Positions 1,881 through 50,755 of a DNA stretch of 64,000 bases are shown piece after piece. The stretch lies in the IMG/VR virus record IMGVR_UViG_3300022543_000001, positions 1 to 64,000 of that record; one strand, written 5' to 3'. Source of the stretch: a virus (Duplodnaviria; Caudoviricetes). The position numbers and the translations under genes are program-made. Under the pieces are notes generated by a model. It was given only the letters and a program-made list of their open reading frames with translations. It searched no databases and was not told the origin of the DNA. The stretch's first letter is position 1, and each line of letters opens with the position of its first letter.

Positions 1881-1881
1881 T

Positions 1882-2316: not shown

Positions 2317-2564
2317 AAGAAGTCTGTATTCAGATTATGAATGCAAACGATGGTATACCAGAAGGTATGACCATTGGAGATGTAGCTAGAATGAGAGATT
2401 TAGAAATTTATAATTGGGAAGAATATGAAAGAGAAGCGGAAAGACGGAGGGTCAAGTTCATTGAATCAGAGAATTCAACAGAACTTAAGAAAGTTACTCA
2501 AGCTAACCACAAGTTCTCCTCGTTCTATGGGGAAGCAAGAGAAGAAAAGGGGGATAAACAATGA
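2313..2564 (+). CDS. Hypothetical protein
   Basis: ATGA overlap with upstream gene at 2313-2316 and with downstream gene at 2561-2564. Confidence 0.6.
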   Translation: MKEVCIQIMNANDGIPEGMTIGDVARMRDLEIYNWEEYEREAERRRVKFIESENSTELKKVTQANHKFSSFYGEAREEKGDKQ

Positions 2565-27200: not shown

Positions 27201-30163
27201 TCTCCTTGCTCATCTCTGTAACTATAGATTAGATCATTAATAGTTTGGAATGCTTCAGCTACATCAAATTTAGATTTAGCAGCTTCATTCATCCTAGCTT
27301 GTAGTTCTCTAAGTTCTGTTACTAATGCATTTCTGCTCTCCCAGTAACTAGGATCATACTCCATTCTTAGGTTCTGTCTTCTCCATTTCTCTAACTCAGC
27401 TTTAAAGTCTGCTGAACCAGGATAGATTCCTTTAGCTTCTAATAAATCTGAGAATTCATTGTATGCACTTTGTAGCAATCCTTCAATAGGTCTCCACTCA
27501 TAGAATCCTTTTGTAGCTGCTCTGTGCTCTTGTAAAACTTCAGCAATACTTAAGTCATAAACTCCGTTCTCTGGATCATCTACTTTAGAAGTACCATCTT
27601 CATACGTAAGAGAATACAATTGTTGGAACTCTCTGAAAGCAGCTTGAATACTAGAGTATTTTTCAAATCTCTCGTACTCATTCTCCATACTGTTTAATAA
27701 GTTATTATAAGCTTGTAGCTTTTGTTTTCTTACAAAGTATGCTAATTTACCTACCTCAGACTTTTTAAAGATATCATCTTTCTCATAGAACTCTGGTACA
27801 TATTCTTGCCACATGAAGTCTCTTTTGAATTGTTCAAACTCCATGATTGCATCAGCAATTTTTGTTTGGTCTTCTGACTTCTTAGCTTCTTCTATATTCC
27901 ACTCTAATAAATCATAGTGATATCTATAATCCTTATATTTATCCAAGTAAGAGTAAACTTCTTTTTCAATAGGCTTACCAGTTTCTTTATCAAAGTATAG
28001 TATTTTATCTTTGAATGCAAGCTTTTCTCTTAACTGAATAGAGTTTAGTTTGCTAAATCCTACTTTAGGTAAAAGCTCTTCTAGTTTCTTTCTGAATTTC
28101 ATTGATTGTTCCCAAACAACATTTTGTACCTGGGTTCTTTCATTCTGAATAAACATTGCTAATGGTCCTACTATAACATCATTACTTGAACTATAGCTCT
28201 CTAACCATCTGTTAAACCAAGTAACATCTTGAGCTCCTCCTGTAAGAGCTGCTCTAATCTTATCTTCATCAACAACTAGATCCTTGTATTCCTTGAGGAA
28301 CCCTTTTAATACATCCGCGGGAACACCTCGTTGCACTAATGCATCTACATCAGCATCAGTAAGAGTTTGTTGAACAACTTTATTATATAAGTCATCTACT
28401 GTTTTCTCTAATTGATCTGCAGGGAATGTTTGTTTTAATGCAATACCAAGGTTACCTTTAAGTCTATCTTGAATATACTTAGACATGTATCCAGTAATTT
28501 CTACATAGAACTGCACATTGTTATTCTTAAGAATGTTTGCAATGTTTGTATTGATTCGTGTAATGTTTAATACAATCTCATTTAATGTTTGATAGAAAGG
28601 ATTATTACTCTCAATTAACTTACCCTCTGGTGAAAGTGACTCATCAATTGCTTGAATCATTTTTAACCAAGCTTTAGAGTTTTGTTTATAAAGCATCAAT
28701 AAAGCAATAGTACTTCTATTGTTTATATTGGTAGTGCTGATTCTTGAAACATCAAGTAACATGTTTTGGGTCATGCTGTTGATAGTATCTAATGTATTTA
28801 CCAATGCTACTGCTCTTTGAAGATCTACATCTAGGGCCCCTTTAGCAGCATCTAATGCATTTTGAATCATCTCATCTTCTGTGAAACTTTCAGTGTCTAC
28901 ATTAAGATTGTCTTTTAGTGTGCTAACTACCTCACGTAAGTATCTGTTGGTTCCTTTTTCAAATAATGAATCCTTTAAGAATTTTTTTGATGCTTTGTCT
29001 CCTTTAAAGTTTTCAGCCTCAGTAAGAACTCTTCTATTGGTTTCATATATTTCCCGGACCACTTTGAGTTGTGACTCAGCATTGGAAAACTTGTTAAGTT
29101 CTTTTGCTCGGTCAACAACATTCCGTGAAAACATAACCAAATCCTCCTCTGTAATGTTGTCAGTTTTAAACTCAAAGTCTTTATCTAAGAGCATATCTGA
29201 CAACTCCTCTAATGTAGTATCAACATCTAGTTTTGCCACGTTCACTTTTGATCCAAACAAGCCTCTCAACAACTGTTTGATAGCAGCCATTAACTTGTTC
29301 ATGAAACTTTGGTAACCTTCTGTCTCTAGTTCATTATTGATTCTATTCAATGCTCTTAACTGCATAGCATAGGCAAGAACTTCTTCTTTAAATAAATCAG
29401 AGTTCTCTTCTAGTTCAGGATAGTTATTTAGTACATAGTACTTAATACCTTGACCTTCTTCTGTAGCTAATGCTTGATCATATAGTTTCTGAAATAGGAT
29501 GTTGTTTGTTTTTCTCAGTCCCTGTAACACTGGGTGAGAAAATTCATGAAGTACAGTTCTTACATTTACATTATCACCTACTATATAAACAGTACCAGCA
29601 TAATAAAATGCGGGTTCTCCATTGTATTTAACGGCTCTATTCTTTAAAATGTTTGCTGCTTCTTCTTGTGTAATAGTTTCAAATTGTGCACCAATACCTT
29701 TAGATAATCTTTGTGCAAGTACTTCAGCAATTTCTCTTGATCTTTCGTTTTGTAACTCATCAAGTTTTACATCCATAAATAATACACCATTAATCTCTTG
29801 TAAAGATTGATCTACTTTAGGATTATCTAAAGCTGGCATATCTTTAATCATCATTGCATCATCTGGTCTTGCATTATACAATTCCTGCAATCTTTCAAAA
29901 AGTTTTACATTAGGTTCAGCTCTAAGTACTCTATACTTTGCATCTCTCCAGTATGTAGATCTTTGTGGATCTACATGCTCAGACATATTAGTACTAAATA
30001 ACTTAGTACCATCAGTTTTTAGACCATACTTTGTTTCAGCCAATGCTGTTATCTGATCATTTAACTTATTAAAAAGATCTTCATTGATGATTCTTCTTAC
30101 ATCATTTGTAGCTCCTTTATCTTGTAAAAACTTTATTGAATTTAATTGTACTTGACAAACCAT
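24227..30163 (-). CDS. Large internal virion/ejection protein (zincin-like HExxH, LysM, C-terminal membrane helices)
   Basis: TVLHEFSH...EEVLAYA; LysM YVKGETLAEIAKKYYITVDELKAKNRI..LEDGQELII; FFAIGLALLSLMLFGF; adjacent to the virion RNAP. Confidence 0.75.
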   Translation of the reverse strand: MVCQVQLNSIKFLQDKGATNDVRRIINEDLFNKLNDQITALAETKYGLKTDGTKLFSTNMSEHVDPQRSTYWRDAKYRVLRAEPNVKLFERLQELYNARPDDAMMIKDMPALDNPKVDQSLQEINGVLFMDVKLDELQNERSREIAEVLAQRLSKGIGAQFETITQEEAANILKNRAVKYNGEPAFYYAGTVYIVGDNVNVRTVLHEFSHPVLQGLRKTNNILFQKLYDQALATEEGQGIKYYVLNNYPELEENSDLFKEEVLAYAMQLRALNRINNELETEGYQSFMNKLMAAIKQLLRGLFGSKVNVAKLDVDTTLEELSDMLLDKDFEFKTDNITEEDLVMFSRNVVDRAKELNKFSNAESQLKVVREIYETNRRVLTEAENFKGDKASKKFLKDSLFEKGTNRYLREVVSTLKDNLNVDTESFTEDEMIQNALDAAKGALDVDLQRAVALVNTLDTINSMTQNMLLDVSRISTTNINNRSTIALLMLYKQNSKAWLKMIQAIDESLSPEGKLIESNNPFYQTLNEIVLNITRINTNIANILKNNNVQFYVEITGYMSKYIQDRLKGNLGIALKQTFPADQLEKTVDDLYNKVVQQTLTDADVDALVQRGVPADVLKGFLKEYKDLVVDEDKIRAALTGGAQDVTWFNRWLESYSSSNDVIVGPLAMFIQNERTQVQNVVWEQSMKFRKKLEELLPKVGFSKLNSIQLREKLAFKDKILYFDKETGKPIEKEVYSYLDKYKDYRYHYDLLEWNIEEAKKSEDQTKIADAIMEFEQFKRDFMWQEYVPEFYEKDDIFKKSEVGKLAYFVRKQKLQAYNNLLNSMENEYERFEKYSSIQAAFREFQQLYSLTYEDGTSKVDDPENGVYDLSIAEVLQEHRAATKGFYEWRPIEGLLQSAYNEFSDLLEAKGIYPGSADFKAELEKWRRQNLRMEYDPSYWESRNALVTELRELQARMNEAAKSKFDVAEAFQTINDLIYSYRDEQGEPDSNAMGKTRLERIRDLEQSIADFKFRFDSSTGLSKEDSEELRELSEKARKGLLQAGSAESKRYMYLLDLLNDQGISPEDAARIQDIFSELSDLSVNMPTTYYVETLNYNLSKQNIKELEIDEIDDFINSEEFEEILEADDAFKSWFNTNHYVVQQYDKPTRSYIARYKRTKANTVSVPKDESNIKFTRILDRNGEEVVLMGVPNARHSRYQVKDQFRTIPFGEAKSDYVGKYIDNKNQWLPRLFDPSSKYSAVDSRFMNEKYFQMQAANSNEFKLLEAIKEYHLDNQKGQSSYSKLYLDLPRYALKKGDIYQAMQKGAYGQRFSELGANVKEWYNQALGKSVMDAENDLNYNPENNLVNTDLDGNQISYVPVSGIYNLDINVQDADIFQGLFRYALSVQTQGKLLESLPLVQSILDTLEDPDNAPKELEKFDKNIYSLKGALTNAKKKFATNNRLGQVKSLIEREYYGKMVEGIEETHPGFGKWINQLQGLSAMGSLAVNIPSDLKNKYGGYVQLIIEGAGAEFINLKDIALARPWAEKAMLEWSTKGIYQTGPGAISTQLIQIFDPNFKSKDQFGREVERSLVKDLVNMEWMYMHRKFGEMQVAVSLFGAFMYGQKVDQILGDGTKKAMRYIEAWEKDEDGIIRLKKGVHPGWNNLAVYHEYVKGETLAEIAKKYYITVDELKAKNRIKSEVQLEDGQELIIAKSELFMGLKNRIQGTSRKLFGAYDEMGQPEGNKLLLYRMFFFMRKWFTPMLMNRFGFDAKTITWTNGGDRYDWATTSYGKGFYITAFQTMLKTMKSGFKNYSYLTDQEKGAVRKMAGEGFFAIGLALLSLMLFGFDPDDDEKWKKLRAKSGAINEDSFNTYGFLANHMLLLAMGVQAESSAFIPLPNVKGINFGSDDYVKMITQTTTSWYNTVVLYIDIFGDVLDFVTFSEMDRYKRDSGPYSWKAEGELKIWSKLGKIFGLSGGTGDPVTQFENMVKNSSKRGS

Positions 30164-30164
30164 A

Positions 30165-33100
30165 TTATGAACATTTAAACGGATCTTCTTCTAATTCCAA
30201 TTGTGTTAATATTTCAGCATCTGAAATTCCTTGACTTGCACTCACTAAGTCTCTCATTTGGTCATACATAGTAGAACCTGGATTAACATATTGAAACTCT
30301 TCAAATAACCTCTTACTTAAATATACAAATAATTCTTGAGGCATGGTATTAGGATCACCAAATCCATACTCTGGAAATGCAATTTTACCATCTTTTTCTT
30401 GAATTTGTTTGATTATATTTATTCTTTTTTCCCAAATGTTTTTTAGTGTTTGGTATTGGTCAGGACTAAGGTCAACCTGTTTACCATTTACAACACTTGC
30501 AAATAAATTAGTTGGAAAATTAATAGACATGCTAGGTACTTCTGACATAAAGTTAGATGCACCACCTAGATTAGTACCTTTTGCAATTTGCTCAGGTTTA
30601 ATCTCATAGACACTTGTGTTGTGTACAAAGACTACGTCCGGATTATTTTTACCTATGTTAGTGTAATAGTATATGTTTTTAGCATTGCTATCATTATACA
30701 TAAATACTCCTTCCTTATCTGTAGATCGTAAACCAAGTCTTTTTACTTCAGCTGTAGTATCTAGATTTGTAGAATCTTCTTCAGCTACTTGCTGACCTCT
30801 TTGTGGTGTAGGTGCAACTGTAGGACTTATTCTTTCAGGATTAGCATAATCCATACCTGATAGATAGTCTTTGAATCTATTTTTATTTAGATTAGTAACT
30901 GAGTTTTGTCTAATAAACTGATCATAGAAATTGTCCAATACAGTAAATCCTTTTTTGTCTAAAGCATCTGTAAATTTACCAACTTCATCTTCTACAATAT
31001 TTAAGAAGTCTGTATAGTCAACAACATTTGTAAAGCTTAATTTAGTTTTGTTGAGACCTGTTTGTAAGAAAGCAAATGTGCTTAAGTATTTAAACATGTC
31101 ACTAATTCTAGCATTCTCTTGTGGATCACTAACTTTTTGTACAGTTGGATCAGCCAATCTTTTTAGATCATTGCTATAAAGATTTGACTTATCACTATCA
31201 AAACTCTTCTCAGCTAATAAGATGTTGAATGCCGTTTCAGTTTTATCTGAATCAAGTTTCAGTCTACCCAATACTGGATAGTCTTTTGCAAGCTCAGGAT
31301 TGTTTTGCAACAACTTAGACATTCTTACAGCAAAAGCATTGTCACTGTCTTGGAATAAGTGGAAGAAGTTATATGAATTATCTAGAGCTTTGATAGCTAA
31401 TAGTTTTTCATACGTATATCTTACAGCTTTTTCATTAGATAAGTCAGGGAAGAGTTCTTTTGTAGTTTTTAGTTCCTCTTGGAATTCTACTGATGTAGAG
31501 TAGTCCGTTGTAAGAGGGTAGACTGATCTTAAGTACTCTCGTTCTGAAACAAATTTTTGATACTCACTAAAGTTTGTTTCTTCATTATTCATAAATGTTG
31601 ATGGATGTAGTGGGTATAAGCCTCTATCTTCATAACTATTTTCTGCATCTGATCCTTCAATCCAAGCCTGTGATTTAAATTCTTTTTGTAACTGTTTAAC
31701 ATCTACATATAAAGTACCACCTTTGACAAATGCACCTCTCTTAAGTTCTTTTACAAGTGCAGTAGGAATTTTAGTCTCCATGTTTAAAGACATAAATCCT
31801 TCTTCAGCTTTATATTTTCTAAGAGCATTCTGTAAAATAAAACTTACAATATCATTTCTGAAGACATTGCTAAACATTTCAATGTTCTTACCAGGGAAAG
31901 TTGTTTCAAGATCATTTCTGATTTGATTCTTTCTTGCAATTAAGTAATCACTAATTTGCTTGTGATATCTTAATTTAAATAATGGTCTACTTACAGCTAA
32001 GGCCATAGGTCCGTTAAAGAAAGAACTGATGATAGAGTCATTCATCATACTATTCAAAATTTCTCTTGGAATTCTTGAATCAAACTCTAACTCCTCAATG
32101 TTAGCTTCACTTTGCTCTACATCAGAAAGAGTAGACTTAGTAGCCGTATCTGGATTAGAACTCATTTTAAGTGCTGTGTATCCAGAAATTTGTTGTTCTA
32201 ACTCAAGATAATGTAAGAACATAGCTTTTGCAATATCACTGTCTTTATCATTGCTGTTGATAAGATCTTCCATTTCCGTTAAAGTAAATGTTTTCTCTTT
32301 TCTATCTTTAAAGTGATCATTTAATAGCTCTTGTCCTTTCAAGTATCTAGCATCATTACTAGAATTTTTAGCTAACTCAGCCTTATCAAAATGGTTTTTA
32401 ATAACCTCAGATGCAGCTTTGTATTTTGCTAACCCTGGACTATCTGGTTTCTTATTAAGTACATCAGCAAATGTAGACTTAGCAAGACGTTGTTCATCTA
32501 CATACTCTCTTACCAATGGATTGGATACAAAATAGATTGCTTCTTGAACAGGTACACCTGCTTTAACTAAATAAAGCAATGTTGGAGCTACCTCATAGTT
32601 TCCTTGGATAAAGAAGATCCAAGCATCTTTTTCAACATCCACCCATCCATTCATCATTTGAGAAATAACATCCCCTACTTTATTGATACCATCAACATCA
32701 TATAAATCTGACATAGAGATAACTTCTTTGCCGTCAGCAGTCATCTTGTTATGTCTCAATCTCATGTTGCTCTTTCTCAACTCTCTTTTTAAAGTATATT
32801 CATCTGGCATATAAGCACCAAGTGAATTCATAATAACATTGAAAGTGTTTTCAATAGCACCAAGACCTAGAGTTTTCTTACCTACAATATTAGATTCGTG
32901 TTTGTATATATTATACATTGCTTCTAATACTCTTGTAGGACTGATTTCTCCAGTATTTTCTGTCATTTTATTATTCTTAGGATTGTACTCTGAAACTTTA
33001 TCTGATAATTTATCAGCAATATCCTTAAGAATAAATGTACCATTTGGCATGATAAGAGATGCATAGTTATCAGGAAGTTCAAGAATGTTTTTGATATCTT

Positions 33101-36100
33101 CTATAAGTTCATTTTCTAATGCAGCTTTTTGTTCTTTAACAGCTTTGGCAAAATTGTCAGTACCTCTAAGATTTTTTATTGTTTGATTGTCTTTATAACT
33201 ACGTTTAATCACATTACCATCCTCATCAAGTGTGTTCATGAAAATTGTAAGTTTATCAATATCAAAGTCACCCCCTGACTTAGCAACAATCTCTGCTGGT
33301 GGAATAATGATATTACCAGCTTGTGGTGGTAAGAATTCAAATACTTCAGCAAACTCCATAGAGTTAAGACCTTGTACAGGAATACGTACACCAACAAGAG
33401 TGATTGCTTTTCTAACAGCTCCTTCATTTGCATCTAACCAAGAGTCATCTTTAATTTTTTCATTCAGTCTTGCCAATGATTTGTCCATATCAAGTGTACC
33501 ATCTTCTAGGTAAACTCCTACAGTTTCATCATTAGCATATTCTAAGTTGAATAAATTATAATATGATCCTTGCATTGCTATCATAACTTTTGCAGCAGCA
33601 GTATAACCATTTGCTTTTTTATGATATGTAGGTAACAAGTAAGTTGTAGAGGCCCATTTTTTGATCTCATCTTTACTTGCTTTTCTTAAATCAGGCTCTG
33701 TAAATTGATTTGCATACAAACCAACAGATACTTGAATCAATGGTTCTCCTGTAACCTTTTGCTTGATTACTCTCTTGTTAATCATAGAAAGTAATAACTT
33801 CTCTATTTTAGCAGCTTCAGGATGGAAAGAAAGATCATGAACTAAATCACCATTGTTGTCAAATACATCTATAAACTCAATAAGATCATCACTCAGAACT
33901 TCTTCTCTTTCAAGATTAGTTCTGATCATGTTTACTAGTTTTGCAATGCTTGACTTATCTTTAGCTTTGTATTCACCAGGAGTAGTTTCTTCATAACCCA
34001 TTTCTTCAAGAAGCTCTATCTTTAATAGGTTAGTGTATTCTTCTACGTGGTCAATGTATTTCTTAACTCTTTCTTCTGTAATGTCTTGATATTTTGTAGA
34101 CTTGATTTTACCTTGTTGGTAAAGACCTTCAAGGATCAACTTTCTCAACTGTGTAGAGAAGATTGATTTACCTTTATAAGTTGCATTTACCTCTGTCTGA
34201 TTTTTCAAAAACTCAGCATAAATAGTATTAATTGTAAATTTTGAGTTTTTATCAAACGTACCATCAGGATTTAATACAACATCACCTTTTCCAATATGAC
34301 TTACTTTAGAACCAGATTCAAATAGAACATAGTCTATTTGATCTTTCATCATCTTTTCATGTAAGTCATACATCGGTGTACCCTCTTTCCCTACTCCAGG
34401 AATAATAGGAGCAAGTGAGAACTTATGGAAAGAGTTTACAGGAAGACCTGTTGATTCTATATTTCCAAAATACTGTAACTTGTAAGGAGGGAAAAACTCT
34501 ACTACATCTTCTGCAGTAATGTTTTGACCCATAGATACTTTTCTATACAACAACTCTTGTTGATCACTCCAGTTACCTTCTAGATGTTTTAATCTTCTAT
34601 AAGTCTCAAATCCTACAATACCTTGACCATCAGCAATTTTCATCTGTGGTTTATCAGTAGAAAAATACTCAGATGCTGCTTTATCAGCATTTTCTTTTGC
34701 TAATTTTCTATTTTTAGTTCTTGCATAGATTGCTTCTTCAATTTCATCTCTGTACTCTTTGTACATGACAGAATTAAATTGCATTTCTTTTATGATTGCT
34801 GTTTGTAAAGTACCATCATAATTTCTTACAGCATAGCCTCTTCTATCAGCATAGTAGTTCTTCAAAGAACTAACATAAATCTGTGCTCTTTTGTCTGCTC
34901 TAAATCCTTTACCACCAGATGCAAGACCAGCATTACGTTTATGGAATTCTTCTTTAGCATGATTGTATTGTACTAAATCTCCATATGCAATAATAACAGT
35001 CTCCATTTTGTGAATGAAGGAGTTATAGGTATAAGCTTTTACTAATGCAGTTTCTATGTCTTTTTCAGTAAGATCTTCATTTGTAACTTTGATTCTTTCT
35101 ATTAATCCTTTATCTACATACTTAGCTTTTTGAAGTCTAGTATAGTTAGCAGCTGTATCAATATCAAAGTATTTTTCAACATCTTTTCTAATTAAGTCTC
35201 TTAAAGTTGGATTGTTATCCAACTCAGTCATTAGATCAAAATCAGATAGTTTATTATCTGAAGCTGCATCAATTATAGAATACAATTCTTTTTGTGTAGT
35301 TGGTGAAAGGATATCATCAAATGCAGTAAATGCTTGTCCAGCCATAACTGCAGTTTTCTTACCATCTTTTCTTTTCACTTTTCTATTGTATCCAGCATAA
35401 TTTTCAAACTTATCAATATCCTGTTGGAATCTGAAAATTCTATTAGCTTCACCAGCTAGATAACCTTCAATAATATCATATGACTTGATTGTACCATCAG
35501 CATAAGGTAAGAAAGACTCCATATCAACATAAAGTTTAGAAGCTTTTTTACCATTATATGTTTTGATATCACCATCAATAGTCATACCCATAGCAGTGTT
35601 TTTAGAAGCATGTCTCATAAATTCCTCAACACCACTTAATAACATCGTATGGAACTCTTGTAGATATTTACTAGTAGCATCCATTGATGCTGTAGAAGTA
35701 CCTCCTTCATTTCTACGGCTTACCATCTGAGTACCGGCTACATTTTGTAATGTAATTTTTGCATCAGAAATCTTTTGACCATACGTTGGAGACATAGGAT
35801 CTAAATCAAATATAGAATTTAAAAGTTTTGAGAATGGGCTAAGTGTATTATTAGATTCATTCAACCATCTCATGTGTTTAAATCTTCCATTTGGATCAGC
35901 CTCAGCTGTTGTAAGTTGTTGCCAGTTGTCTGCGTAATTGATAGCTGTAACTATTCTTGTAATAGTATTATCAACCATGTGCTCCCATACTCTGTTTCCT
36001 TCAGGAGTTTGCACACTAAAGTTTGAATAACTGTCAGAGAATGCATTTTGTAGTCCTGCTAAAGCTCTGATTCTACCTCTTACTTCATCACTTTGTGATT

Positions 36101-39100
36101 GACTATCTCTAAGTGATTCTGGAAGACCATTAAGTAAATATGTAAGTGGATCCTTTTTAAATAAGAATGCATCTGCTGATGAACTTTTATTTACTTTTTT
36201 GATCACCTCGTACATTCTATCAATACCAAATGTTGTACTGAATGGAGTAGTTCTGTTGTTAACAATCTCTTTGATAGCAGAACTAGACTGATCTAATACA
36301 ATACCAATTGCTTGTAAAAACTCATTAGCTTTTCTGTAGTTAAATCTACCATCTGTACCAAACTCTTTTACAATTTTGCTTGTGTTTAGTATGTTATTAC
36401 CATACTTATCTTTTGATACATATGGATTAATTGTACTATCTGCAGTAACAAAGTTAGATTTCCAATCTTGGATTACTTGGTATACATCAAAGTTAGCTTT
36501 TGCAACACGGGCTTCAAAAGATTTATTTATACCTTCCTCACTTCTAGCTTCTTCCTTGTTTAAGTTAAGCTGTACATAAGGGATTCTTGGTTTCTTAAAG
36601 TCTTGCCAGAAATTAGTTTCAGAAGAGAACTCCATTGGAGTATACTGACCTAGGGCAGTTTTCTCATTAAAGAAAGGATTTGGTAATAACTTTTGTAATT
36701 GTTCAAGCTCAGGATAATTTTCAGAATTCTCAAAGATTCTTGAATACATATCCATTTCATCAAATGAACCTTCTAGTATTTTAGCAAGTCTATTCCATGT
36801 AATGTCAACATCTTGTAATACAGGGAGGCCAAAAAGACCATCTCTATTAGTTACAATCTCACCATTTTCTTTAGATACTTTAAAGATACTAGCTAATAAC
36901 ATCATAGTGTCTTCACTAGCAAGTTCTTTAGAAGAAATAGTGTTACCATCATTTAACTTAAACAAGTTACTCTTCTCAATATTACTTGGATCTTCAATCT
37001 CAATATACTGATCTCTCAATACACGGTATCTAGACTTCTCAAGATGATATGCTATAACATTGTTTTTCTCTCTACCGTCTAAACTGTCTGTTAGATTACC
37101 AAAATTAGATGTAATTTTATCTAACAGCTCTAACTCTTCAAGAAATTTAGGATCAGTAAGTAACTCATCATCTGCCTCTAAATCAGCAACATAAGCAATT
37201 CTTAATCTTTCAAATCTATCATAGATATCTCTGTAAAGATCTTTCTTATTCTCAGGATCCTTAAGAAGTTTTAATGCTGCAGCTGTAGTATTAAAGTCTC
37301 TATTATGAGCTTGGAATATAACAGACATCATACTGTCCATTGCATCAGCAATTTTCTTAGACTCTTCTAATGTAAAATTATCATTGATGATTTTGCTTCT
37401 GTTCAGTTTCCCAAACATAACATTATCCATAGAAGGTTTTAAACTTGATAGAATGCTAGGATTTTCTGAGGCTCTGTACAATTTGTCAAATAATTCTTTA
37501 ACAGACTCTACATCTTGCAAGCTTGTAGCAGCTTGTTGTTTAGTAACTTTACCAAAAAGCTTTTGGATAAACTGATAAATCTTATCAAATAACTTACCTA
37601 AGATTCCTCTGACTTCTTTTTTACCTTTTGATTTAGCATATGCTCTAAACTCTTCAGCCAAAGACTCTTCTATATCAAAGAAACTTTTTCCTTTGTACTT
37701 AGCTAATGTTTGTACTTCTTCATAAAGTTTGATCTTCTCATCCTTAGTTAAAAGTAATTGAGAGAAACCGTGCCATGCTTCATGATAAACATCAACCATA
37801 GTACCACCATCAGCTTCGTATAAAGTAATACCATAACCAGACCAGGTAGCAAATGCATCTGAGTTTACAATCTCCGTAACTCTTTCAAGACTAATGAACT
37901 TACTCAAAGGAGAGTTATTCCACCATGATTCAGCTTTTTGTCTGTCAGACTTAGATGTAAATACTTTGTCTAGGAATCTATCACGTAGCTTAGATCTATC
38001 TAACCCTTTCTTTTTATATAAAGCACTGTTAGATGAACCGTTAATGATATCATCTAGTAAGCTTACTCTTGTTGATGGATTGTTTCTAATGTTTGTTTCT
38101 TTAGCTTCAGCTTCTGTTTTAGAAGGTGTCTGTGCTGCAGTTACTGGTTTAGTACGTGTTTGTTTTTTAGGAGCAGGCTTTGGTGCTTCTTTATCAACCT
38201 TTGCTTTAGGAGCAGGTTTTGATTGAGTAGGTTTTGGTCTACCAACAGGAATAATCCCATCAAACTCAACAGTACCATCAGGTATTGCATAAGTAAGATA
38301 AGCATTCATACCATTCTCATAAGCATTAGTCTCAGTTGTATAAGTAACTTTGACATATGGTTTAATAGCTTCAAAATAATCTTTAGAAGATTCAGTTATC
38401 TTATCACCTTCAATAGAGTATTCTGTAAAAGTTTTACCCTTGTATTTATTATTGTATTGTACGTTAGCTGGCCAAAATTCATCTTTAACTTTGTCTTTTG
38501 GTCTAGCACTCAATAAATGATCTACAATAAGTTTTTTACCAGTTTCTGTATAAAGAACATCTTGAGGTATCTCTTTACCATTTAGTTCTACAAAGAATGT
38601 TTTCTCATTATTTACAATAAGAACTTTTGCTCTAATTCTATCTCTGTTATATGGAAGATTTGTTTTGTATCCTGTTTTAGGATCCTTCATTAAAGCATTA
38701 TTGATAAAGATTTCAAAGTATGCTTTTCTTTCATCTGGTGTTAACTCTCTACCTTTTAACTTTGCTGTAGTAGTTAATACTGTTGCAAGTTGTTCAGCTA
38801 AAGACTGATCAATGTCTGATCTTTGTAAAAATACTTCTTGGTCAACATTTAATCCTCCAGCTTTAGTTTTCTGAATGATAACATATTGTTTACCAGTATC
38901 TTTACCAGTTGTTATACCAGTATAGTTTTTAATATCTTCTTCAGTAAGACCTGCTTCTTCCAAAGTCATAGTCTTAACTGCAGTTCTTGGTATACCAAAT
39001 GTTCCTCCTAGTATTGGAAGAATGATTTGTAAATCACCATTTGACTCTTCAATTAATTTTCTTAACTGATAAAGCTCATTCATTTCTCTGTCTTGACGAT

Positions 39101-40112
39101 CTTTGATAGTCTTAACTAATTTTTTAAAGTCAGTTTCAGTTACTTTTACTTTACCATTGCTTTCTTCTTCAATGATGTCTGCTTGTCTTCTAGCAATAAC
39201 TTCTGGTTGTACAAGATTATAATGACGATTGCTTCTGTTAGACAATAATAATTTACCGTCAACAAGGTTTACTTTTCTAAGGTACTGATAAACAATCCTA
39301 CCTTCTGCAGGGTTGTCTGTAATTGTACCATCCGGTTTAAAGTATACAAGACCTCCTTTTGAATCTGTAACAACAGCAGCTATACCATTATCATTTGGAT
39401 TCTTCTCTAGGAATGCTCTATCATCAGCAGTTAATAGTTCAGGAGAAATATTTCTTGTTAACTGTGTAGTCAAAGCAAGTATTACTCCATTATATTCAAT
39501 CTCTTCTGTACCCGTTCTTTGTTTAGCTATCTCTACTATAGCTTTAACTACTTCAGAAAATAGTTTCTTTTCAGGATCTATGTTGTTTCTTTCTTCCTCA
39601 GATAAAGTTTCTGGATTTCCAGCATATGCAATTTGAATAGATGTAGCCCAAGGGGTTGATACCTTAGCACCATTGTCTTCATTAAATGACCAGAACTCCT
39701 TCTCGTCTACTTCAGGAACAAAGTCTTTTTTACCTTTGTTTGTATTTTTAATCTCAGAATCAATCTGCTGCTTGCTCTTTTTTTTAGTTGCAATATCCTT
39801 TCCTACCTCAGTAAGATCAGCATATCTTTTTCTCATTTGTGCAAGAGCAGTAAAATCAAAACCATTATCAACTAGATAATCATTAGCTTCATTGTCTTGA
39901 GTAACTAAATGGAATACATCAGGAATAGCTTGTGCATATAACATAGCTTTAACTTGATCTCCTGTAGCTTCTTTTACAACATTGTATGTGTCTTGAACAA
40001 TTTTATTCAAGTCAATTGCAGGTAATTCAGAATTACCTAATCTATCAGTTACTTCACCATAAAGTACTTCATATAAATCTAATACCTGCTCTCTATTTAA
40101 ACTACATGCCAT
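30165..40112 (-). CDS. Virion-packaged crAss-like single-chain RNA polymerase with N-terminal zincin-like domain
   Basis: VRIPVQGLNSM...EIVAKSGGDFDIDKL (DxDxD at 33255-33269; DFDID as in phi14:2 gp66), IADGQG, and VYHEAWH...EESLAEEF. Confidence 0.9.
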   Translation of the reverse strand: MACSLNREQVLDLYEVLYGEVTDRLGNSELPAIDLNKIVQDTYNVVKEATGDQVKAMLYAQAIPDVFHLVTQDNEANDYLVDNGFDFTALAQMRKRYADLTEVGKDIATKKKSKQQIDSEIKNTNKGKKDFVPEVDEKEFWSFNEDNGAKVSTPWATSIQIAYAGNPETLSEEERNNIDPEKKLFSEVVKAIVEIAKQRTGTEEIEYNGVILALTTQLTRNISPELLTADDRAFLEKNPNDNGIAAVVTDSKGGLVYFKPDGTITDNPAEGRIVYQYLRKVNLVDGKLLLSNRSNRHYNLVQPEVIARRQADIIEEESNGKVKVTETDFKKLVKTIKDRQDREMNELYQLRKLIEESNGDLQIILPILGGTFGIPRTAVKTMTLEEAGLTEEDIKNYTGITTGKDTGKQYVIIQKTKAGGLNVDQEVFLQRSDIDQSLAEQLATVLTTTAKLKGRELTPDERKAYFEIFINNALMKDPKTGYKTNLPYNRDRIRAKVLIVNNEKTFFVELNGKEIPQDVLYTETGKKLIVDHLLSARPKDKVKDEFWPANVQYNNKYKGKTFTEYSIEGDKITESSKDYFEAIKPYVKVTYTTETNAYENGMNAYLTYAIPDGTVEFDGIIPVGRPKPTQSKPAPKAKVDKEAPKPAPKKQTRTKPVTAAQTPSKTEAEAKETNIRNNPSTRVSLLDDIINGSSNSALYKKKGLDRSKLRDRFLDKVFTSKSDRQKAESWWNNSPLSKFISLERVTEIVNSDAFATWSGYGITLYEADGGTMVDVYHEAWHGFSQLLLTKDEKIKLYEEVQTLAKYKGKSFFDIEESLAEEFRAYAKSKGKKEVRGILGKLFDKIYQFIQKLFGKVTKQQAATSLQDVESVKELFDKLYRASENPSILSSLKPSMDNVMFGKLNRSKIINDNFTLEESKKIADAMDSMMSVIFQAHNRDFNTTAAALKLLKDPENKKDLYRDIYDRFERLRIAYVADLEADDELLTDPKFLEELELLDKITSNFGNLTDSLDGREKNNVIAYHLEKSRYRVLRDQYIEIEDPSNIEKSNLFKLNDGNTISSKELASEDTMMLLASIFKVSKENGEIVTNRDGLFGLPVLQDVDITWNRLAKILEGSFDEMDMYSRIFENSENYPELEQLQKLLPNPFFNEKTALGQYTPMEFSSETNFWQDFKKPRIPYVQLNLNKEEARSEEGINKSFEARVAKANFDVYQVIQDWKSNFVTADSTINPYVSKDKYGNNILNTSKIVKEFGTDGRFNYRKANEFLQAIGIVLDQSSSAIKEIVNNRTTPFSTTFGIDRMYEVIKKVNKSSSADAFLFKKDPLTYLLNGLPESLRDSQSQSDEVRGRIRALAGLQNAFSDSYSNFSVQTPEGNRVWEHMVDNTITRIVTAINYADNWQQLTTAEADPNGRFKHMRWLNESNNTLSPFSKLLNSIFDLDPMSPTYGQKISDAKITLQNVAGTQMVSRRNEGGTSTASMDATSKYLQEFHTMLLSGVEEFMRHASKNTAMGMTIDGDIKTYNGKKASKLYVDMESFLPYADGTIKSYDIIEGYLAGEANRIFRFQQDIDKFENYAGYNRKVKRKDGKKTAVMAGQAFTAFDDILSPTTQKELYSIIDAASDNKLSDFDLMTELDNNPTLRDLIRKDVEKYFDIDTAANYTRLQKAKYVDKGLIERIKVTNEDLTEKDIETALVKAYTYNSFIHKMETVIIAYGDLVQYNHAKEEFHKRNAGLASGGKGFRADKRAQIYVSSLKNYYADRRGYAVRNYDGTLQTAIIKEMQFNSVMYKEYRDEIEEAIYARTKNRKLAKENADKAASEYFSTDKPQMKIADGQGIVGFETYRRLKHLEGNWSDQQELLYRKVSMGQNITAEDVVEFFPPYKLQYFGNIESTGLPVNSFHKFSLAPIIPGVGKEGTPMYDLHEKMMKDQIDYVLFESGSKVSHIGKGDVVLNPDGTFDKNSKFTINTIYAEFLKNQTEVNATYKGKSIFSTQLRKLILEGLYQQGKIKSTKYQDITEERVKKYIDHVEEYTNLLKIELLEEMGYEETTPGEYKAKDKSSIAKLVNMIRTNLEREEVLSDDLIEFIDVFDNNGDLVHDLSFHPEAAKIEKLLLSMINKRVIKQKVTGEPLIQVSVGLYANQFTEPDLRKASKDEIKKWASTTYLLPTYHKKANGYTAAAKVMIAMQGSYYNLFNLEYANDETVGVYLEDGTLDMDKSLARLNEKIKDDSWLDANEGAVRKAITLVGVRIPVQGLNSMEFAEVFEFLPPQAGNIIIPPAEIVAKSGGDFDIDKLTIFMNTLDEDGNVIKRSYKDNQTIKNLRGTDNFAKAVKEQKAALENELIEDIKNILELPDNYASLIMPNGTFILKDIADKLSDKVSEYNPKNNKMTENTGEISPTRVLEAMYNIYKHESNIVGKKTLGLGAIENTFNVIMNSLGAYMPDEYTLKRELRKSNMRLRHNKMTADGKEVISMSDLYDVDGINKVGDVISQMMNGWVDVEKDAWIFFIQGNYEVAPTLLYLVKAGVPVQEAIYFVSNPLVREYVDEQRLAKSTFADVLNKKPDSPGLAKYKAASEVIKNHFDKAELAKNSSNDARYLKGQELLNDHFKDRKEKTFTLTEMEDLINSNDKDSDIAKAMFLHYLELEQQISGYTALKMSSNPDTATKSTLSDVEQSEANIEELEFDSRIPREILNSMMNDSIISSFFNGPMALAVSRPLFKLRYHKQISDYLIARKNQIRNDLETTFPGKNIEMFSNVFRNDIVSFILQNALRKYKAEEGFMSLNMETKIPTALVKELKRGAFVKGGTLYVDVKQLQKEFKSQAWIEGSDAENSYEDRGLYPLHPSTFMNNEETNFSEYQKFVSEREYLRSVYPLTTDYSTSVEFQEELKTTKELFPDLSNEKAVRYTYEKLLAIKALDNSYNFFHLFQDSDNAFAVRMSKLLQNNPELAKDYPVLGRLKLDSDKTETAFNILLAEKSFDSDKSNLYSNDLKRLADPTVQKVSDPQENARISDMFKYLSTFAFLQTGLNKTKLSFTNVVDYTDFLNIVEDEVGKFTDALDKKGFTVLDNFYDQFIRQNSVTNLNKNRFKDYLSGMDYANPERISPTVAPTPQRGQQVAEEDSTNLDTTAEVKRLGLRSTDKEGVFMYNDSNAKNIYYYTNIGKNNPDVVFVHNTSVYEIKPEQIAKGTNLGGASNFMSEVPSMSINFPTNLFASVVNGKQVDLSPDQYQTLKNIWEKRINIIKQIQEKDGKIAFPEYGFGDPNTMPQELFVYLSKRLFEEFQYVNPGSTMYDQMRDLVSASQGISDAEILTQLELEEDPFKCS

Positions 40113-40113
40113 T

Positions 40114-43100
40114 TTAACAAGTTTTTGAATTTTCAGCTAATTTATCTAATCTTGATTTTTTATCAGATGCTTTTGATTTTTCTTTTGCTTCAGCAAGTGC
40201 TGCTGCATCATTTTGAATATCCTTGATAGTATCTTTTGATTCATTAGAATCTTCGATATCTACAGGAGTTATTTCTACATTTGCTTCAGGTTGTGTTGCT
40301 TCCATAGTTGTTTTTTCAAAATTTTCTATAAGTTCTGCTTCAGTAAAATCTCTTGATTCTTCAGTCTTAATATTTTTCAATTTAACCGAATCTTTATTCT
40401 TTTTTACCACGATAACTTCCTCACCAGAGAAGTCTGTAAAGATAGGATTTTTACTTATAAGATACTCATCCACAGCAATATTTTGAATAGAAACAATTGT
40501 TTTTAATTCCTGTAATCTATTGGTATAAGCATCTCTTATAGCAGTTGTATCTTGATCATTTTTTACAGCATCCAGAAATGCTTCTTCATAAACTTGCTCA
40601 ATAGTATCTAACGTAGCATTGTTTATTTTTTCAACAGAATCTAACACCTCTTCAAACTCTACAGGTTCTTCAAATGTTTCACCTAAACTTTCTTCTCTTG
40701 CTTGTTTGACAAGGTCTTCAAGTTCCGTTCTTGTAGCTGGTCTAGAAACTGTTTCTGCTGGTTTTCTGCTAGACCTTTCATTCTGAGGTACACTAGACCC
40801 TTTCTGTACTTCTGCTGATCCTGGCCCAAAGACTTGGTCGGCTGCTTCTTGTTTTTTGCTGATTCTTCCATTCTTAGTTAAATTAATTAATTGCATGTCA
40901 TTAAGTAAATCATTCAATGCATTAATTTGATTAGTAATATCATCTACTATATCTCCACGATTAATTACAGTGTAACCTAATGACTCTAATTTTTGAATAG
41001 TGTCTTTAGCCCATTTTGTAATAGTGTTTAGATCTGACTTCTTTAAAGCTTGCACTCCACTCTCTATCAAAGTATCTAATGCATCTGGATATTCAGCACT
41101 CAGTATTTCTGTTATTGCTGTACCAATATTACGTGATAAAGATAAGTTATCTATTGCTTTTAAGTCTTGTGTTTCATTTGCTTTTGTAGTATTTCTAGTT
41201 AATCTCTGAAAACTATTTGGCAATCTATTCAAAGCAAAAATGTAATCATCTGCATTCTCTCCATAGACAAACATTTTTTTGTTTGATTCAGCAAGAGAAA
41301 CTCTTTTATTATTAAGTTGTTTAATTTGATCTTGTAGTTTGGCAATCCTGGTAATCAAAGCATCTCTTTTATCAGAGTCTATATCTTCTGTAGAGACAAT
41401 ATTACGGAGGTCTCCAATTTTTTGAGATAACCCACCGATCTGTTTATCAATTTTACTTATTGCTTCATCATTAGACATATAACTTAAGACAGTTATAGTT
41501 CCAGTTTTGTCTCTTAATACATCATACCTTACACCATTTATTGTTGCAATAGTATCATCATTATTAGAGAATGCTGCATTAACTACTTTACCGTTTACAG
41601 TTGAAACTTGACCAATAGATTCAGTTGGTACAACCATACCTAGTCCAGCAGCACTTAATTTTAATAAACCATTAGATACATTTTTACCATCAATCTTTAT
41701 TGGAAAAACTTCAATAACTCCTTCAGTTGATTTAATAGCTTCAGAAATCTTTTTAATATTACTTTCAAGTTCAGCAATATAATCTGGATTACCAAACTCA
41801 CCTTTTTCTACAGCTAAGTTTGCTTCTAATGCATCTAGTGTAAGTTGTAATGTAGATATGTCATCATTAATAACAATCTCAACTCCAAATTCTGCATTTG
41901 GCATTAGTACTAATTTACCAACTCGACCATTATAAATAACAGCTTTATTTACATTTTCTCCAATTCCATTTTTAGTAGGGTCAGATTCTTCAATACCCAC
42001 AGTTACAGAAGATGGTTTTGCTTCTTCTCTCTTAATAGGTGCTTTAATATCTGGCGTTGTTTTAGTGATACCGTAGTTTTCAATTTCCGGTAAGTATTCT
42101 AAATCAATTGTGTCCTTTCCATCCTCTACAATAGAAGCAAGTTCGATGTCATTAATGTAACCATCAATAGTTACATCAATTTCAAACGGCATTAACTTCA
42201 AGTCAGGTGTAATAGCAGTATTATTGTGGAACATGTAACCATATATAGACTGTTGAGCACGGAAATATGTAGACTTATCTTTAAGTTTACCTGTTCCAAA
42301 TGCTGTCCATTTATCTTTACCTGCAGTTTTAATATCCACAATAGCAACTGAACCATCTTCTCTTACTAAAAGTAAGTCAAGCTCTCCTGTTACACCATTA
42401 CCGTCTCGTAAATTTTTATCAAATAGTTTTACGTTCTCTGATAAGATAGTGTATGTACCATCTACTATACCAAGTCTAAACTTAGTGACAATACCTCCAG
42501 GGTTACTTGGTGTAACTGGTGCAAATAGTTTATCAAAAACTTTTCTTGCCATTACATCAGATATCTTAACCGGTCTACCTTTTATCTCTACTTCAGAATC
42601 ATAATCAAATTCTGAGAAATTAGATTTAGTTCCTGCATTAGGGGTAAGGAATACTCTGATTAGGTTATCCACCACGTCTCCAGCATCTGCAAACTCTCTG
42701 AATGCTGTTTTTGAAACAACATTTTTTAAATTTTCATATGTAGGTCTATTACCTAATGCATTCTCAATTGTTTTTAATTTCTTTTCTGATCTAAATACTT
42801 TCCATCCACCTTGTGATTGATAAACTTTTCTTTTAAAAGCTTCCATAAATAATCGTACTCTATCTTCAAGTACAATATCTGGATCATTAAAGAATTGATT
42901 AAACAAATTCTCAAGTGGAGCAGCAGTAGGATTACCATCTGCATCAACACCCGGTTTCAATGGATTGTAAATAAAAGGATCTTTACCTAACATCTCAGTC
43001 TCAACTTCTTCAGCAACTTGAGTAGATCTAGCTGGCATAGGATCATTAGGACCTCTATCTCTAAAAGTTCTACCTATGACATTACCATCTTCATCAGTTA

Positions 43101-50500: not shown

Positions 50501-50696
50501 CATCTTTTTTCTTGATGTTTAAATCATGTGTTAAGTCAGCACCATAAAGTTGACCATATAGATTATTCAGTGATTGCCAGTTTGAATCATACTGAGTTTG
50601 TTTAGTCTGCATCAAGCTTCCGTAGAAGTTTAAGTCAGGCTGAAACGGCTGATAATCTGGTATATAATCTGTAACCCCTTGTAAATACGTTGCCAT
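47514..50696 (-). CDS. Internal virion/ejection-type protein
   Basis: 1060 aa, no Cys seen, N-terminus YIPDYQPFQPDLNF; first gene of the giant ejection cluster. Confidence 0.6.
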   Translation of the reverse strand: MATYLQGVTDYIPDYQPFQPDLNFYGSLMQTKQTQYDSNWQSLNNLYGQLYGADLTHDLNIKKKDELLKQIDFNLKRVSGLDLSLEQNVNQAMQVFKPFYEDKYLMKDMAWTKNWKNTYNSANALKNSQDEKQRKQWWGTGIQGLELRRQMFKDADLEGTLNMTNAQYTPFVNAVQEYMDLAKKFNVGAVSQLPDQSGLYLVRKKNGELILPTLQNMFMAEYANRPDIQDMYRERAFVERMNYANQNASKFGGNKSEAEKQYIKEKYDWLKNYASDKNVKAQDDLNTTKSLQGNLEKDVNNGNVNPQQSNYGRSLEDLFAVNTAVADNTQKLNDQINDKQSTSAAQGYDEDILSDIELARLKVDAGFASVFAEQDIMRASGNYATLNQEIEYKANPVGLEFLRDKHARARQQQAHLDRESEIDRANQAKMYQKAVDYNVKKGYWGFTKDGQLNTNPQSQGFNINMVTPDGTTAEEMSLDAANKYMRDQMISQNATEPVNNLMKFINNGVTSDSFTAAQLAQFVLKLNPSEPTAKRILKEGSKNYKPDIVKVWNQIWSGYKADPNGFTTRTVNSGQIYNVNNLMQSWTAQHSGSGLAQEYFKDQSMIKLDQLARTDDALNVVRNNNYDKIRNKFTEDLKYIVSNVKTKDPEAYRNINDAKIQQAVNLMMSKYALDSHGNTDEFKAMAPEVDAQISSILGFSVGKSTNQKADSKWYNYVVPLTALPRMLGDGRETVKDKASWVADVFDQSFEELAKDMNPETGLQTYPISGTQRSGNKVALAAETGTMMVAPGIAWDPGNQSASQMFNTILSTNWNQDKNKFRISINGNKLPGSDEDWENTGVTQNEATAIVRELQSRLNSDPELKPFMVHATTMSMESTKLGSMKLTAPRDVIEKVIKGMADGGDEKALKNKIDAIYQNGITFVAPKNIWDSNPLFSKQFPTPTEVLLRQGPIKYTDPAGNGRYTIEKTPGVGDYSGVGEFYEMMPDGSKKTHYKYFGVDVRSGREIEGKEQNMNSILNQAAAMNFDMFRRIHQTGDQKAIQNAQQNFSGITTSPFWQYNK

Positions 50697-50710: not shown

Positions 50711-50755
50711 TAAATCTATTAAAATTTTTTAAGTTTACTAAACCTTTAAAGTTTA
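50711..50755 (-). promoter_or_regulatory. Candidate promoter (TAAACTTT ... TAGATTTA)
   Basis: Same layout as 58537-58581; -7-like box 14 nt before ATG 50696. Confidence 0.45.

Follow-up and report, generated by a model that had tools for sequence, protein, structure and literature searches.

The window analysed here comprises the 64,000 nt at positions 1 to 64,000 of the IMG/VR record IMGVR_UViG_3300022543_000001 (Caudoviricetes), which belongs to a 90,203-bp phage genome. On its minus strand lies a series of giant genes, among which one for an RNA polymerase (RNAP) stands between two other giant and co-oriented genes, so that the products follow each other in the order 2464-3315-1978 aa (Table 1). 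In the 90,203-bp genome, the genes of the portal (phrog_6547, E 2.5e-66) and of the major head protein (phrog_11589, E 5.9e-32) are located upstream of this tail and cargo block.

Table 1. Cargo genes, motifs and gene junctions in the window
Feature	Positions	Strand	Remarks
First-link cargo protein, 2464 aa	40114..47508	(-)	Sole Cys is the last residue (TGT codon 40117-40119)
Middle link, virion RNA polymerase, 3315 aa	30165..40112	(-)	Only Cys are Cys3 (40104-40106) and Cys3314 (30171-30173)
Catalytic metal-binding motif DFDID (two-barrel RNAP, residues 2282-2286)	33255..33269	(-)	Its three Asp are invariant in alignment A1
Last-link cargo protein, 1978 aa	24227..30163	(-)	Sole Cys is Cys3 (30155-30157)
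LysM domain of the 1978-aa protein	25088-25204	(-)	
1060-aa protein without Cys, directly upstream of the 2464-aa gene	47514..50696	(-)	
Junction 1, 2464-aa C-terminus / RNAP N-terminus (candidate link)	40104..40119	(-)	Cys-stop, 1 nt, Met-Ala-Cys
Junction 2, RNAP C-terminus / 1978-aa N-terminus (candidate link)	30155..30173	(-)	Cys-Ser-stop, 1 nt, Met-Val-Cys

The catalytic region of the RNAP gave tblastn matches at 22-26% identity in 106 phage records, many of them crAss-like and phi14:2 g066 included, and its metal-binding motif has the form DFDxD, which the abstract of the phi14:2 preprint names as the motif of crAss-like RNAPs. The three aspartates (D2282, D2284 and D2286) are invariant in our alignment A1, as are M1 and C3. 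The C-terminal domain is also conserved and terminates in ..EEDPFKC, and the protein holds an invariant zincin-like motif, HEAWH. As for the last link, its N-terminal ~120 aa resemble phi14:2 gp65 (N-terminal family profile against gp65 residues 1-148, E 4.7e-28). Other searches gave little. No match was obtained in Pfam for the RNAP and the 2464-aa protein, in the PDB (by sequence) for the RNAP, or by tblastn of the C-terminal 1000 aa of the RNAP against phage records, and when seven large minus-strand proteins other than the RNAP were compared with PHROGs, six had no match and the 1978-aa protein had LysM/endolysin matches only.

The same order, with a giant DFDxD-bearing protein between two other giants, occurs in two cultured crassviruses, Cellulophaga phage phi14:2 (gp67-gp66-gp65) and Bacteroides phage crAss001 (gp47-gp50-gp49); gp66 of phi14:2 is homologous to the RNAP of the window, and gp65 has its N-terminal domain in common with the last link. 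The trio is probably a crAss-like RNA-polymerase cargo block of the kind packed in virions, where the 2464-aa protein is the positional counterpart of phi14:2 gp67 and crAss001 gp47, and the 1978-aa protein is the counterpart of gp65 and gp49. The window differs from both phages in the length of its RNAP (3315 aa versus 2180-2412 aa, at the mentioned 22-26% identity in the catalytic region) and in the HEAWH motif within it. The cargo proteins of phi14:2 and crAss001 have been detected in virions by proteomics (phi14:2 preprint; PMC10172136), and to judge from homology those of the window would also be packed in the particle and ejected from it.

Taken together, the 1060-, 2464-, 3315- and 1978-aa proteins contain four Cys in 8,817 residues (0, 1, 2 and 1, respectively). 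An earlier note on this DNA, made by eye, had given the same counts and coordinates, and our recount agrees with it throughout, down to the two junction strings (TGT TAA A ATG GCA TGT and TGT TCA TAA T ATG GTT TGT) and the 634-aa PolB, which has 7 Cys where about seven had been estimated. In the remaining ORFs of the 90,203-bp genome Cys makes up 1.43% of the residues, a rate that predicts ~126 for the 8,817 (Poisson P(<=4) = 2e-48), and in tail and fibre proteins of the same phage it reaches 6.5%. The chance that all four Cys would fall within three residues or fewer of the four facing termini is ~2e-12. Since this arrangement is kept in hundreds of homologues, it has been selected and is not a product of chance.

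Two protein homologue searches were run with 600-aa regions as queries. Both terminal Cys of the RNAP are present in all 110 full-length close homologues, which have 8 internal Cys in 380,994 residues, and in a diverse set of 131 cluster representatives (catalytic region 36-79% identical) the N-terminal Cys is found in 118 and the C-terminal one in 130. Full-length homologues of the first link carry the C-terminal Cys in 114 cases out of 117 and an N-terminal one in none (1 internal Cys in 291,911 residues). The last link shows the opposite polarity, with an N-terminal Cys in 108/116 and a C-terminal one in a single protein, a probable frameshift artefact (6 internal Cys in 258,877 residues). 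Internal Cys thus account for <=0.011% of these sets. The exact position varies between relatives, from residues 3-7 at the N-terminus to -1 to -10 at the C-terminus, and over more than 500 proteins the terminal Cys always lies within ~10 residues of the chain end. Co-conservation within orthologous trios, which the earlier note had put forward as a check, holds in 73 IMG/VR loci, where every complete trio follows the rule; the apparent exceptions turned out to be mis-picked ORFs or contig ends.

The terminal-Cys pattern of phi14:2 (gp67 Cys -1; gp66 Cys3 and Cys -2; gp65 Cys3) and crAss001 (gp47 Cys -3; gp50 Cys5 and Cys -9; gp49 Cys5) is identical to that of the window, and it is present in DAC15 too. 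In crAss001 and DAC15 the gene of the first link is on the opposite strand, far from the start of the RNAP gene, yet its product still ends in Cys, so the Cys pairs are not an artefact of gene junctions. Where the genes are contiguous, their spacing across relatives goes from -11 to +18 nt at junction 1 and from -10 to +30 nt at junction 2.

The Cys follow the physical ends of the chains through natural splits and fusions of the cargo genes and through that gene rearrangement. Four loci (L066, L074, L075 and L076) encode a free-standing protein of 242-261 aa with exactly two Cys, at residue 3 and at the last residue, and the protein after it begins MYC. In two other loci (L067 and L068), the C-terminal ~120 aa of this module are the extreme C-terminus of the RNAP, and these fused RNAPs keep two terminal Cys only. 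In a further locus (L058), the last-link gene is interrupted by an ORF for a GIY-YIG homing endonuclease, and the new ends read ...DCG and MAC.... At fusions the pairs are absent. The phi14:2 preprint reports that the three proteins form a single polyprotein in some crAss-like phages, and in cr118_1, cr125_1 and cr108_1, where a single fused protein comprises the first link and the RNAP, there is no Cys near the mapped junction, whereas the junction of the RNAP with the last link, still separate, retains its pair. This joint loss and joint retention fit a pairing of adjacent ends with each other, and do not fit one of the RNAP N-terminus with the RNAP C-terminus. Cys and junctions rise in number together, with two Cys in fused forms, four in trios and six in four-link chains.

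Since profiles built on the four terminal regions failed to recover the termini of gut crassviruses, except for the last-link N-domain in phi14:2, the junctions of the fused gut forms were placed only approximately, with crAss001 and phi14:2 proteins as BLAST queries. A candidate junction Cys of cr108_1 (..KKTC-LTSD) was discarded, since this mapping places it ~680 residues inside the RNAP part. Other candidate exceptions were also set aside: two proteins with a Cys at an odd C-terminus (P0068 and P0310) overlap the next ORF and are probable frameshifts, two more without an N-terminal Cys (P0396 and P0399) start at contig ends, and the apparent splits of L050 and L035 are frameshift or deletion breaks inside otherwise colinear alignments. 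One case counts against a chain. In L070, the last-link protein is broken into 128 and 2025 aa with no Cys at the break, either through a real split or through an assembly error. A search of Rfam detected no introns at the L050 and L070 breaks.

From these observations we consider it rather probable that each pair of facing termini is joined, probably through a disulfide, and that the proteins form a single linear chain. The cargo proteins have been purged of Cys, like other ejected phage proteins, except for one Cys retained within a few residues of each chain end that faces the next protein. Covalent links in the particle, most likely disulfides, would join the C-terminus of the 2464-aa protein to the N-terminus of the RNAP, and the C-terminus of the RNAP to the N-terminus of the 1978-aa protein. 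Proteins made separately would in this way become one unbranched N-to-C thread, a functional equivalent of the fused polyprotein encoded by some crassviruses. The fused forms have the same modules in the same N-to-C order in one covalent chain, but there the join is a peptide bond across a Cys-free junction, and in the window it would be post-translational, through a Cys pair. Linkage at the extreme ends would make the thread no thicker than one polypeptide, so that it could traverse the narrow tail channel as one string, and the reducing cytoplasm of the host could then part the linked proteins.

The head-to-tail order 2464-RNAP-1978 had already been proposed in the earlier note. Its pairing of ends is strongly supported, with pairs that are gained at breaks, absent at fusions and kept when the genes are not adjacent, while the disulfide comes by analogy with cyanophage A4. 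The link would most likely be a disulfide. It could form by oxidation after lysis, as the earlier note had it, and it may order ejection or time the release of the RNAP rather than only stabilise the packed cargo. Because the cytoplasm in which particles are assembled is reducing, a disulfide could not arise until later, which counts against the chain. Disulfides are otherwise an established feature of crassvirus particles, as the tail and gp57 of crAss001 carry them (PMC10172136). Of the seven small ORFs with Cys motifs that were examined in the window, none encodes a thioredoxin-like, glutaredoxin-like or sulfhydryl-oxidase-like protein. Gut crassviruses keep the terminal Cys despite their anoxic habitat, an observation that counts against a disulfide.

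The closest known arrangement is that of cyanopodophage A4 (Anabaena phage A-4L), whose consecutive giant ejection proteins also have lone facing terminal Cys: the only Cys of gp27 (1717 aa) is at -3 and that of gp26 (1114 aa) at residue 5. Cryo-EM shows gp27 Cys1715 and gp26 Cys5 joined by a disulfide in the pre-ejectosome (PNAS 2025, PMC12002296). A4 is T7-like, has no virion RNAP and forms one link, whereas the proposed crassvirus chains would have two or three; no comparative rule on splits and fusions has been described for A4. By blastp, the window proteins have no significant similarity to A4 gp26 or gp27 (best E 0.07), and the resemblance is one in the way of working, not in family membership. 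Ejection proteins of other phages share only the purge. N4 vRNAP (3500 aa), gp51 and gp52, and T7 gp15 and gp16, have 0 Cys each, and the suppression of Cys in ejected proteins of Schitoviridae (N4 gp50-52, DEV gp71-73) has been explained by their transit through a periplasm with disulfide-forming enzymes (PMC11445570). Schitoviridae and T7 ejection proteins are Cys-purged like those of the window, but without conserved terminal Cys pairs; in N4 the three functional parts make up one polypeptide and require no link.

The A4 structure also supplies the main competing explanation, where the terminal disulfides would only lock the folded internal core, or pre-ejectosome, of the mature particle, with no thread, no ejection order and no timing of the RNAP. 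The A4 authors interpret their disulfide as a stabiliser of a folded, fivefold pre-ejectosome with a mortise-and-tenon core around the portal axis (PMC12002296), a reading from which no role in threading follows. In crAss001, the cargo proteins are predicted to be folded and helical and to be kept in a cargo zone of the capsid (PMC10172136), and the crAss001 structure paper holds that the order of ejection is probably set by packing and mutual protein interactions. A stabilising bond, however, could be anywhere in an interface, whereas here it stays near the chain ends in more than 500 proteins and moves with splits and fusions. Such end placement is a requirement of a linear, unbranched topology, and internal Cys have been almost fully purged, so we regard a core lock without threading as unlikely.

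Another explanation is that the facing Cys bind a metal (Zn, or Fe/Fe-S), either in one four-Cys clasp that gathers all four termini or with one bridge per junction. A site of this kind needs no oxidation step and could be built in the reducing cytoplasm, the four Cys of the window would suit a tetrathiolate exactly, and acidic or His residues often adjoin the C-terminal Cys (..EEDPFKC, ..DFMKHC). The scaling of Cys number with junctions (2/4/6) means, however, that a single four-Cys site is not conserved, and the Zn clasp that the earlier note had offered as an alternative fits poorly, since relatives function with one pair when fused or three pairs in four-link forms. A pair of thiolates at each junction would be a poor metal site, the family has no additional conserved ligand, and the matching signature of A4 is a disulfide by cryo-EM, all of which makes metal binding quite improbable.

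Very improbable, in our opinion, is that the terminal Cys are not mutual partners at all but lone anchors to the portal, capsid or tail, redox sensors, or targets of a host or phage enzyme. The partners are predicted from sequence patterns, and the portal and tail proteins of the same phage do contain Cys. But the terminal Cys are gained and lost as facing pairs and never singly, and independent anchors would not show the parity described above, where an N-terminal Cys is absent from every first link and a C-terminal one occurs among last links in that sole, probably frameshifted, protein. Finally, the idea that the TGT codons act as a nucleotide signal at tight junctions (translational coupling, stop-start context), the amino acid being incidental, has the form TGT..TAA N ATG NNN TGT of both window junctions and the use of TGT in 238 of 251 cases on its side, but its probability is close to nil, as it is effectively refuted by the Cys-ended first link on the other strand in crAss001 and DAC15, while spacers of -11 to +30 nt, variable Cys positions and the occurrence of TGC also oppose it, and the predominance of TGT fits 33% GC; a codon-level test carries no information, as TGT dominates in this AT-rich genome.

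Returning to the disulfide-linked chain, the earlier note had regarded it as not yet described. This stands for crassviruses, for which we found no description of terminal-Cys chaining in the literature, nor any mention of the cysteines of the cargo proteins in the literature found on phi14:2 and crAss001; it does not stand for the components, as both Cys suppression (PMC11445570) and one terminal disulfide between ejection proteins (PMC12002296) have been published. A broader proposal, which we put forward as tentative and somewhat doubtful, is that terminal Cys pairs could be a general, modular means in short-tailed phages to stitch separately encoded ejected proteins into one thread, with a disulfide across each break in the polypeptide and a fixed N-to-C exit. 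Host cytoplasmic reductases would cut this string and release, perhaps switch on, the virion RNAP only inside the cell, and the device would have an independent or a very ancient origin in Crassvirales and A4-like cyanophages.

No phages are more abundant in the human gut than the crassviruses, which are also common in sea water. The question addressed here is how an RNA-polymerase cargo of ~700 kDa is stored, ordered and ejected through their narrow tail, and the rule that a Cys pair flanks each break of the cargo chain is a concrete hypothesis, cheaply testable in cultured phi14:2 and crAss001. If true, it would explain how cargo genes fuse and split freely in some lineages, it would give the known Cys purge of ejected proteins a positive function, and it could explain the release of a self-inhibited virion polymerase only in a reducing cytoplasm. 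In annotation, a terminal Cys pair marks a protein end as genuine and the protein as part of the cargo chain, and helps to separate real gene splits from frameshift errors.

Two minor results concern the surroundings of the chain. A predicted complex between the C-terminal 150 aa of the RNAP and the N-terminal 120 aa of the 1978-aa protein scored 0.44 (one control, 0.28), values that carry no weight either way on binding. The 1060-aa protein has no family match and is likely a further cargo or ejection protein, outside the Cys-linked chain; the ORF that precedes the first link also has 0 Cys in related loci.

Judged by its sequence, this region of giant minus-strand genes belongs to a crAss-like phage and encodes its virion RNA-polymerase cargo block. 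The 3315-aa protein carries a DFDID motif at residues 2282-2286, and its catalytic region matched 106 phage records at 22-26% identity, many of them crAss-like and one of them gp66, the catalytic RNAP subunit of phi14:2. The downstream 1978-aa protein contains a LysM domain and an N-terminal domain related to phi14:2 gp65 (E 5e-28), and genes for the portal and the major head protein were found further along the same contig. The crAss001 counterparts gp47, gp50 and gp49 are virion proteins with a combined mass of about 694 kDa; they are thought to be stored in the cargo zone of the capsid and to exit in a partly unfolded state by way of a tail whose constrictions measure less than 50 Å (PMC10172136). 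The RNAP protein also holds a zincin-like HExxH motif (HEAWH), invariant across 25 aligned homologues, in which Glu is also conserved some 35 residues further downstream; in phi14:2, in contrast, it is gp65 that is reported to carry the zincin-like domain.

The ORF listing and a scripted count reproduced every cysteine number and position of the earlier note, which had counted only four in the 8,817 residues of the four proteins, all beside the two gene junctions, and both junction strings match the sequence as it gave them. The window covers the first 64 kb of a contig of 90,203 bp. Its remaining ORFs contain 1.43% Cys, so that about 126 cysteines would be expected in these residues (probability of four or fewer, ~2e-48), and the chance of all four falling beside facing termini is ~2e-12. 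Since tail or fibre proteins encoded on the same contig reach 6.5% Cys, the purge is specific to the cargo block.

Features of the contig and of the compared genomes, with cysteine content where counted
Feature	Coordinates	Strand	Remarks
1060-aa protein	47514-50696	minus	0 Cys
2464-aa protein (first link)	40114-47508	minus	single Cys, the final residue
3315-aa protein (RNAP)	30165-40112	minus	Cys3 and Cys3314
1978-aa protein (last link)	24227-30163	minus	Cys3, its only Cys
HEAWH motif of the RNAP	37770-37784	minus	residues 777-781
84-aa ORF	1373-1627	plus	ClpS match
291-aa ORF	3760-4635	plus	CxxxCxxC
1141-aa protein	50753-54178	minus	CxC pairs
1444-aa protein	54187-58521	minus	CxC pairs
1178-aa protein	61821-65357		CxxC...CxxC (169, 172, 188, 191)
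Cys-rich structural-module proteins, past the window	70900-81350	minus	982 aa/64 Cys (6.5%); 601 aa/22; 560 aa/19; 282 aa/12; 345 aa/11
90-aa head-module ORF	83496-83768	minus	Cys at 61 and final residue
Major head protein	85217-86833		0 Cys
Neighbour of the major head protein	86861-88117		0 Cys
GIY-YIG ORF, locus L058	19937-20545	plus	PF01541, 31 bits (Pfam)
Break in last-link protein, locus L070	18833-19396		128-aa ORF (MAC...) and 2025-aa ORF
Interruption of RNAP gene, cr108_1	15824-16115		~290 nt
Cargo genes of cr125_1	904-23017		many in-frame stops under table 11
T7 gp14, internal virion protein	1729-2319		lone Cys at residue 2

The terminal cysteines proved to be general beyond this genome. 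The best 120 RNAP homologues (44-96% identity) include 110 of full length (at least 3000 aa), and every one of these carries a Cys no later than residue 7 and another among its last 10 residues; together they hold only 8 internal cysteines in 380,994 residues. A wider survey of 1.84 billion cluster representatives returned 1,965 related clusters, and the full-length RNAPs from the best 145 of these keep the N-terminal Cys in 118/131 cases and the C-terminal one in 130/131. The first-link family (that of the 2464-aa protein) has a C-terminal Cys in 114 of 117 members, an N-terminal one in none of the 117 and a single internal Cys in 291,911 residues, while an N-terminal Cys is present in 108 of 116 members of the last-link family (that of the 1978-aa protein). 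The comparison of orthologous trios proposed in the earlier note bore out the pattern, which is kept in every complete trio of 73 IMG/VR loci (30-94% identity); the ORF preceding the first link in these loci has no Cys, and the exceptions examined in detail were contig ends or frameshifts. Cultured crassviruses follow suit: phi14:2 gp67 (1797 aa) has a lone Cys as its final residue, gp66 has Cys3 and Cys -2 (counted from the C-terminal end) and gp65 Cys3 alone; crAss001 gp47 has a lone Cys at -3, gp50 Cys5, Cys -9 and one internal Cys, and gp49 Cys5 alone; and the DAC15 cargo trio shows the same arrangement.

Natural splits and fusions of these genes are informative. At locus L058, the last-link gene is divided into two ORFs by a free-standing GIY-YIG homing-endonuclease ORF, and the ends formed at this split have the sequences ...DCG (Cys -2) and MAC... 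(Cys3). Four other loci (L066, L074, L075 and L076) encode, directly after the RNAP, a separate protein of 242-261 aa with only two cysteines, at residue 3 and at the final residue, and the protein that follows starts MYC (MLRISC in L066); this four-link arrangement is stable, given an identity of only 47% between L066 and L074. At L067 and L068, the RNAP itself ends in the C-terminal ~120 aa of this module, and these RNAPs have Cys at their two termini only. The first link and the RNAP form one fused protein in three gut phages, cr118_1, cr125_1 and cr108_1, with junctions mapped by BLAST at about residues 1760-1920, 2080-2200 and 1500-1720, respectively (in-frame stops of cr125_1 read as Q); the nearest Cys lies at least 120 residues away, and the unfused RNAP/last-link junction retains its Cys pair. 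As pairs appear at splits and are absent at fusions, these sequences indicate that cysteines are gained and lost as facing pairs, tracking the physical ends of the chain. The C-terminal Cys of the first link and the N-terminal Cys of the RNAP are lost together while the other pair stays, which fits pairing of adjacent ends and not closure of the RNAP on itself.

Some of these genes carry other interruptions. The L070 last-link protein is broken at a point without Cys, where no Rfam intron was found; the break may stem from faulty assembly, or the locus may truly depart from the rule. The cr108_1 insertion falls exactly within the catalytic motif of the RNAP (upstream ORF ending ..IVAKAGSD, downstream ORF starting LYDIDK..., both ends without Cys) and looks like an intron or a similar element. 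Stop-codon recoding is known in some gut crAss-like phages, and the in-frame stops of cr125_1, 78 of them in the fused RNAP ORF, fit it.

A precedent for the chemistry comes from the cyanophage A4, where cryo-EM resolved a disulfide between gp27 Cys1715 and gp26 Cys5 in the pre-ejectosome (PMC12002296). In the genome of A-4L, the lone Cys of gp27 (1717 aa) is at -3 and that of gp26 (1114 aa) at 5, the same terminal signature as in the cargo proteins of the window, although sequence similarity is absent. On the best reading, each facing pair of the crassvirus proteins would be linked in the particle, probably by a disulfide that forms either when cytoplasmic reductants can no longer reach the particle or outside the cell. 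The product would be a linear first-link/RNAP/last-link thread, kept unbranched by the location of the cysteines at the extreme ends and free of loops by the purge of internal ones, and equivalent to the single polyprotein that some crassviruses encode as cargo (phi14:2 preprint). Ordered ejection and reductive release would, we infer, follow. Of the head-to-tail disulfide chain first proposed, the pairing of facing ends is thus upheld by comparative evidence, while its chemistry is argued by analogy with A4. The earlier note also considered a four-Cys inter-protein Zn clasp; a single metal clasp of this kind fits poorly, because the number of pairs ranges from one to three among relatives. 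A nucleotide-level signal as the cause of the junction cysteines is ruled out, because crAss001 and DAC15 encode the first link on the other strand and away from the start of the RNAP gene, and spacers between cargo genes vary from -11 to +30 nt among relatives.

The novelty claimed for the pattern holds in part. Our literature search found no published account of it in crassviruses, and the crAss001, phi14:2 (preprint) and N4 papers searched do not mention cargo cysteines; however, Cys suppression in ejected proteins has been published for Schitoviridae (PMC11445570), as has the terminal disulfide of A4. N4 gp50, gp51 and gp52 have no Cys, nor do T7 gp15 and gp16; T7 gp14 has a single one.

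Elsewhere on the contig, the extremely Cys-rich minus-strand proteins of the structural module, five of which had no match in a PHROG search, suggest from their composition that external parts of the tail or fibres are held by many disulfide bonds. The terminal Cys of the 90-aa head-module ORF may be chance. Adjoining the cargo block, the 1141-aa and 1444-aa proteins, for which no family match was found, contain several CxC pairs each (such as 800/802, 819/821, 829/831 and 637/639, 656/658, respectively). An N-degron adaptor is an unusual gene product for a phage, and the 84-aa ORF matches the Clp protease adaptor ClpS (Pfam PF02617, E 2e-11). For the 291-aa ORF the match is to spore photoproduct lyase (PF20903, E 8e-20), and its score against radical SAM PF04055 falls below the threshold (23 bits; cut-off 29.5).
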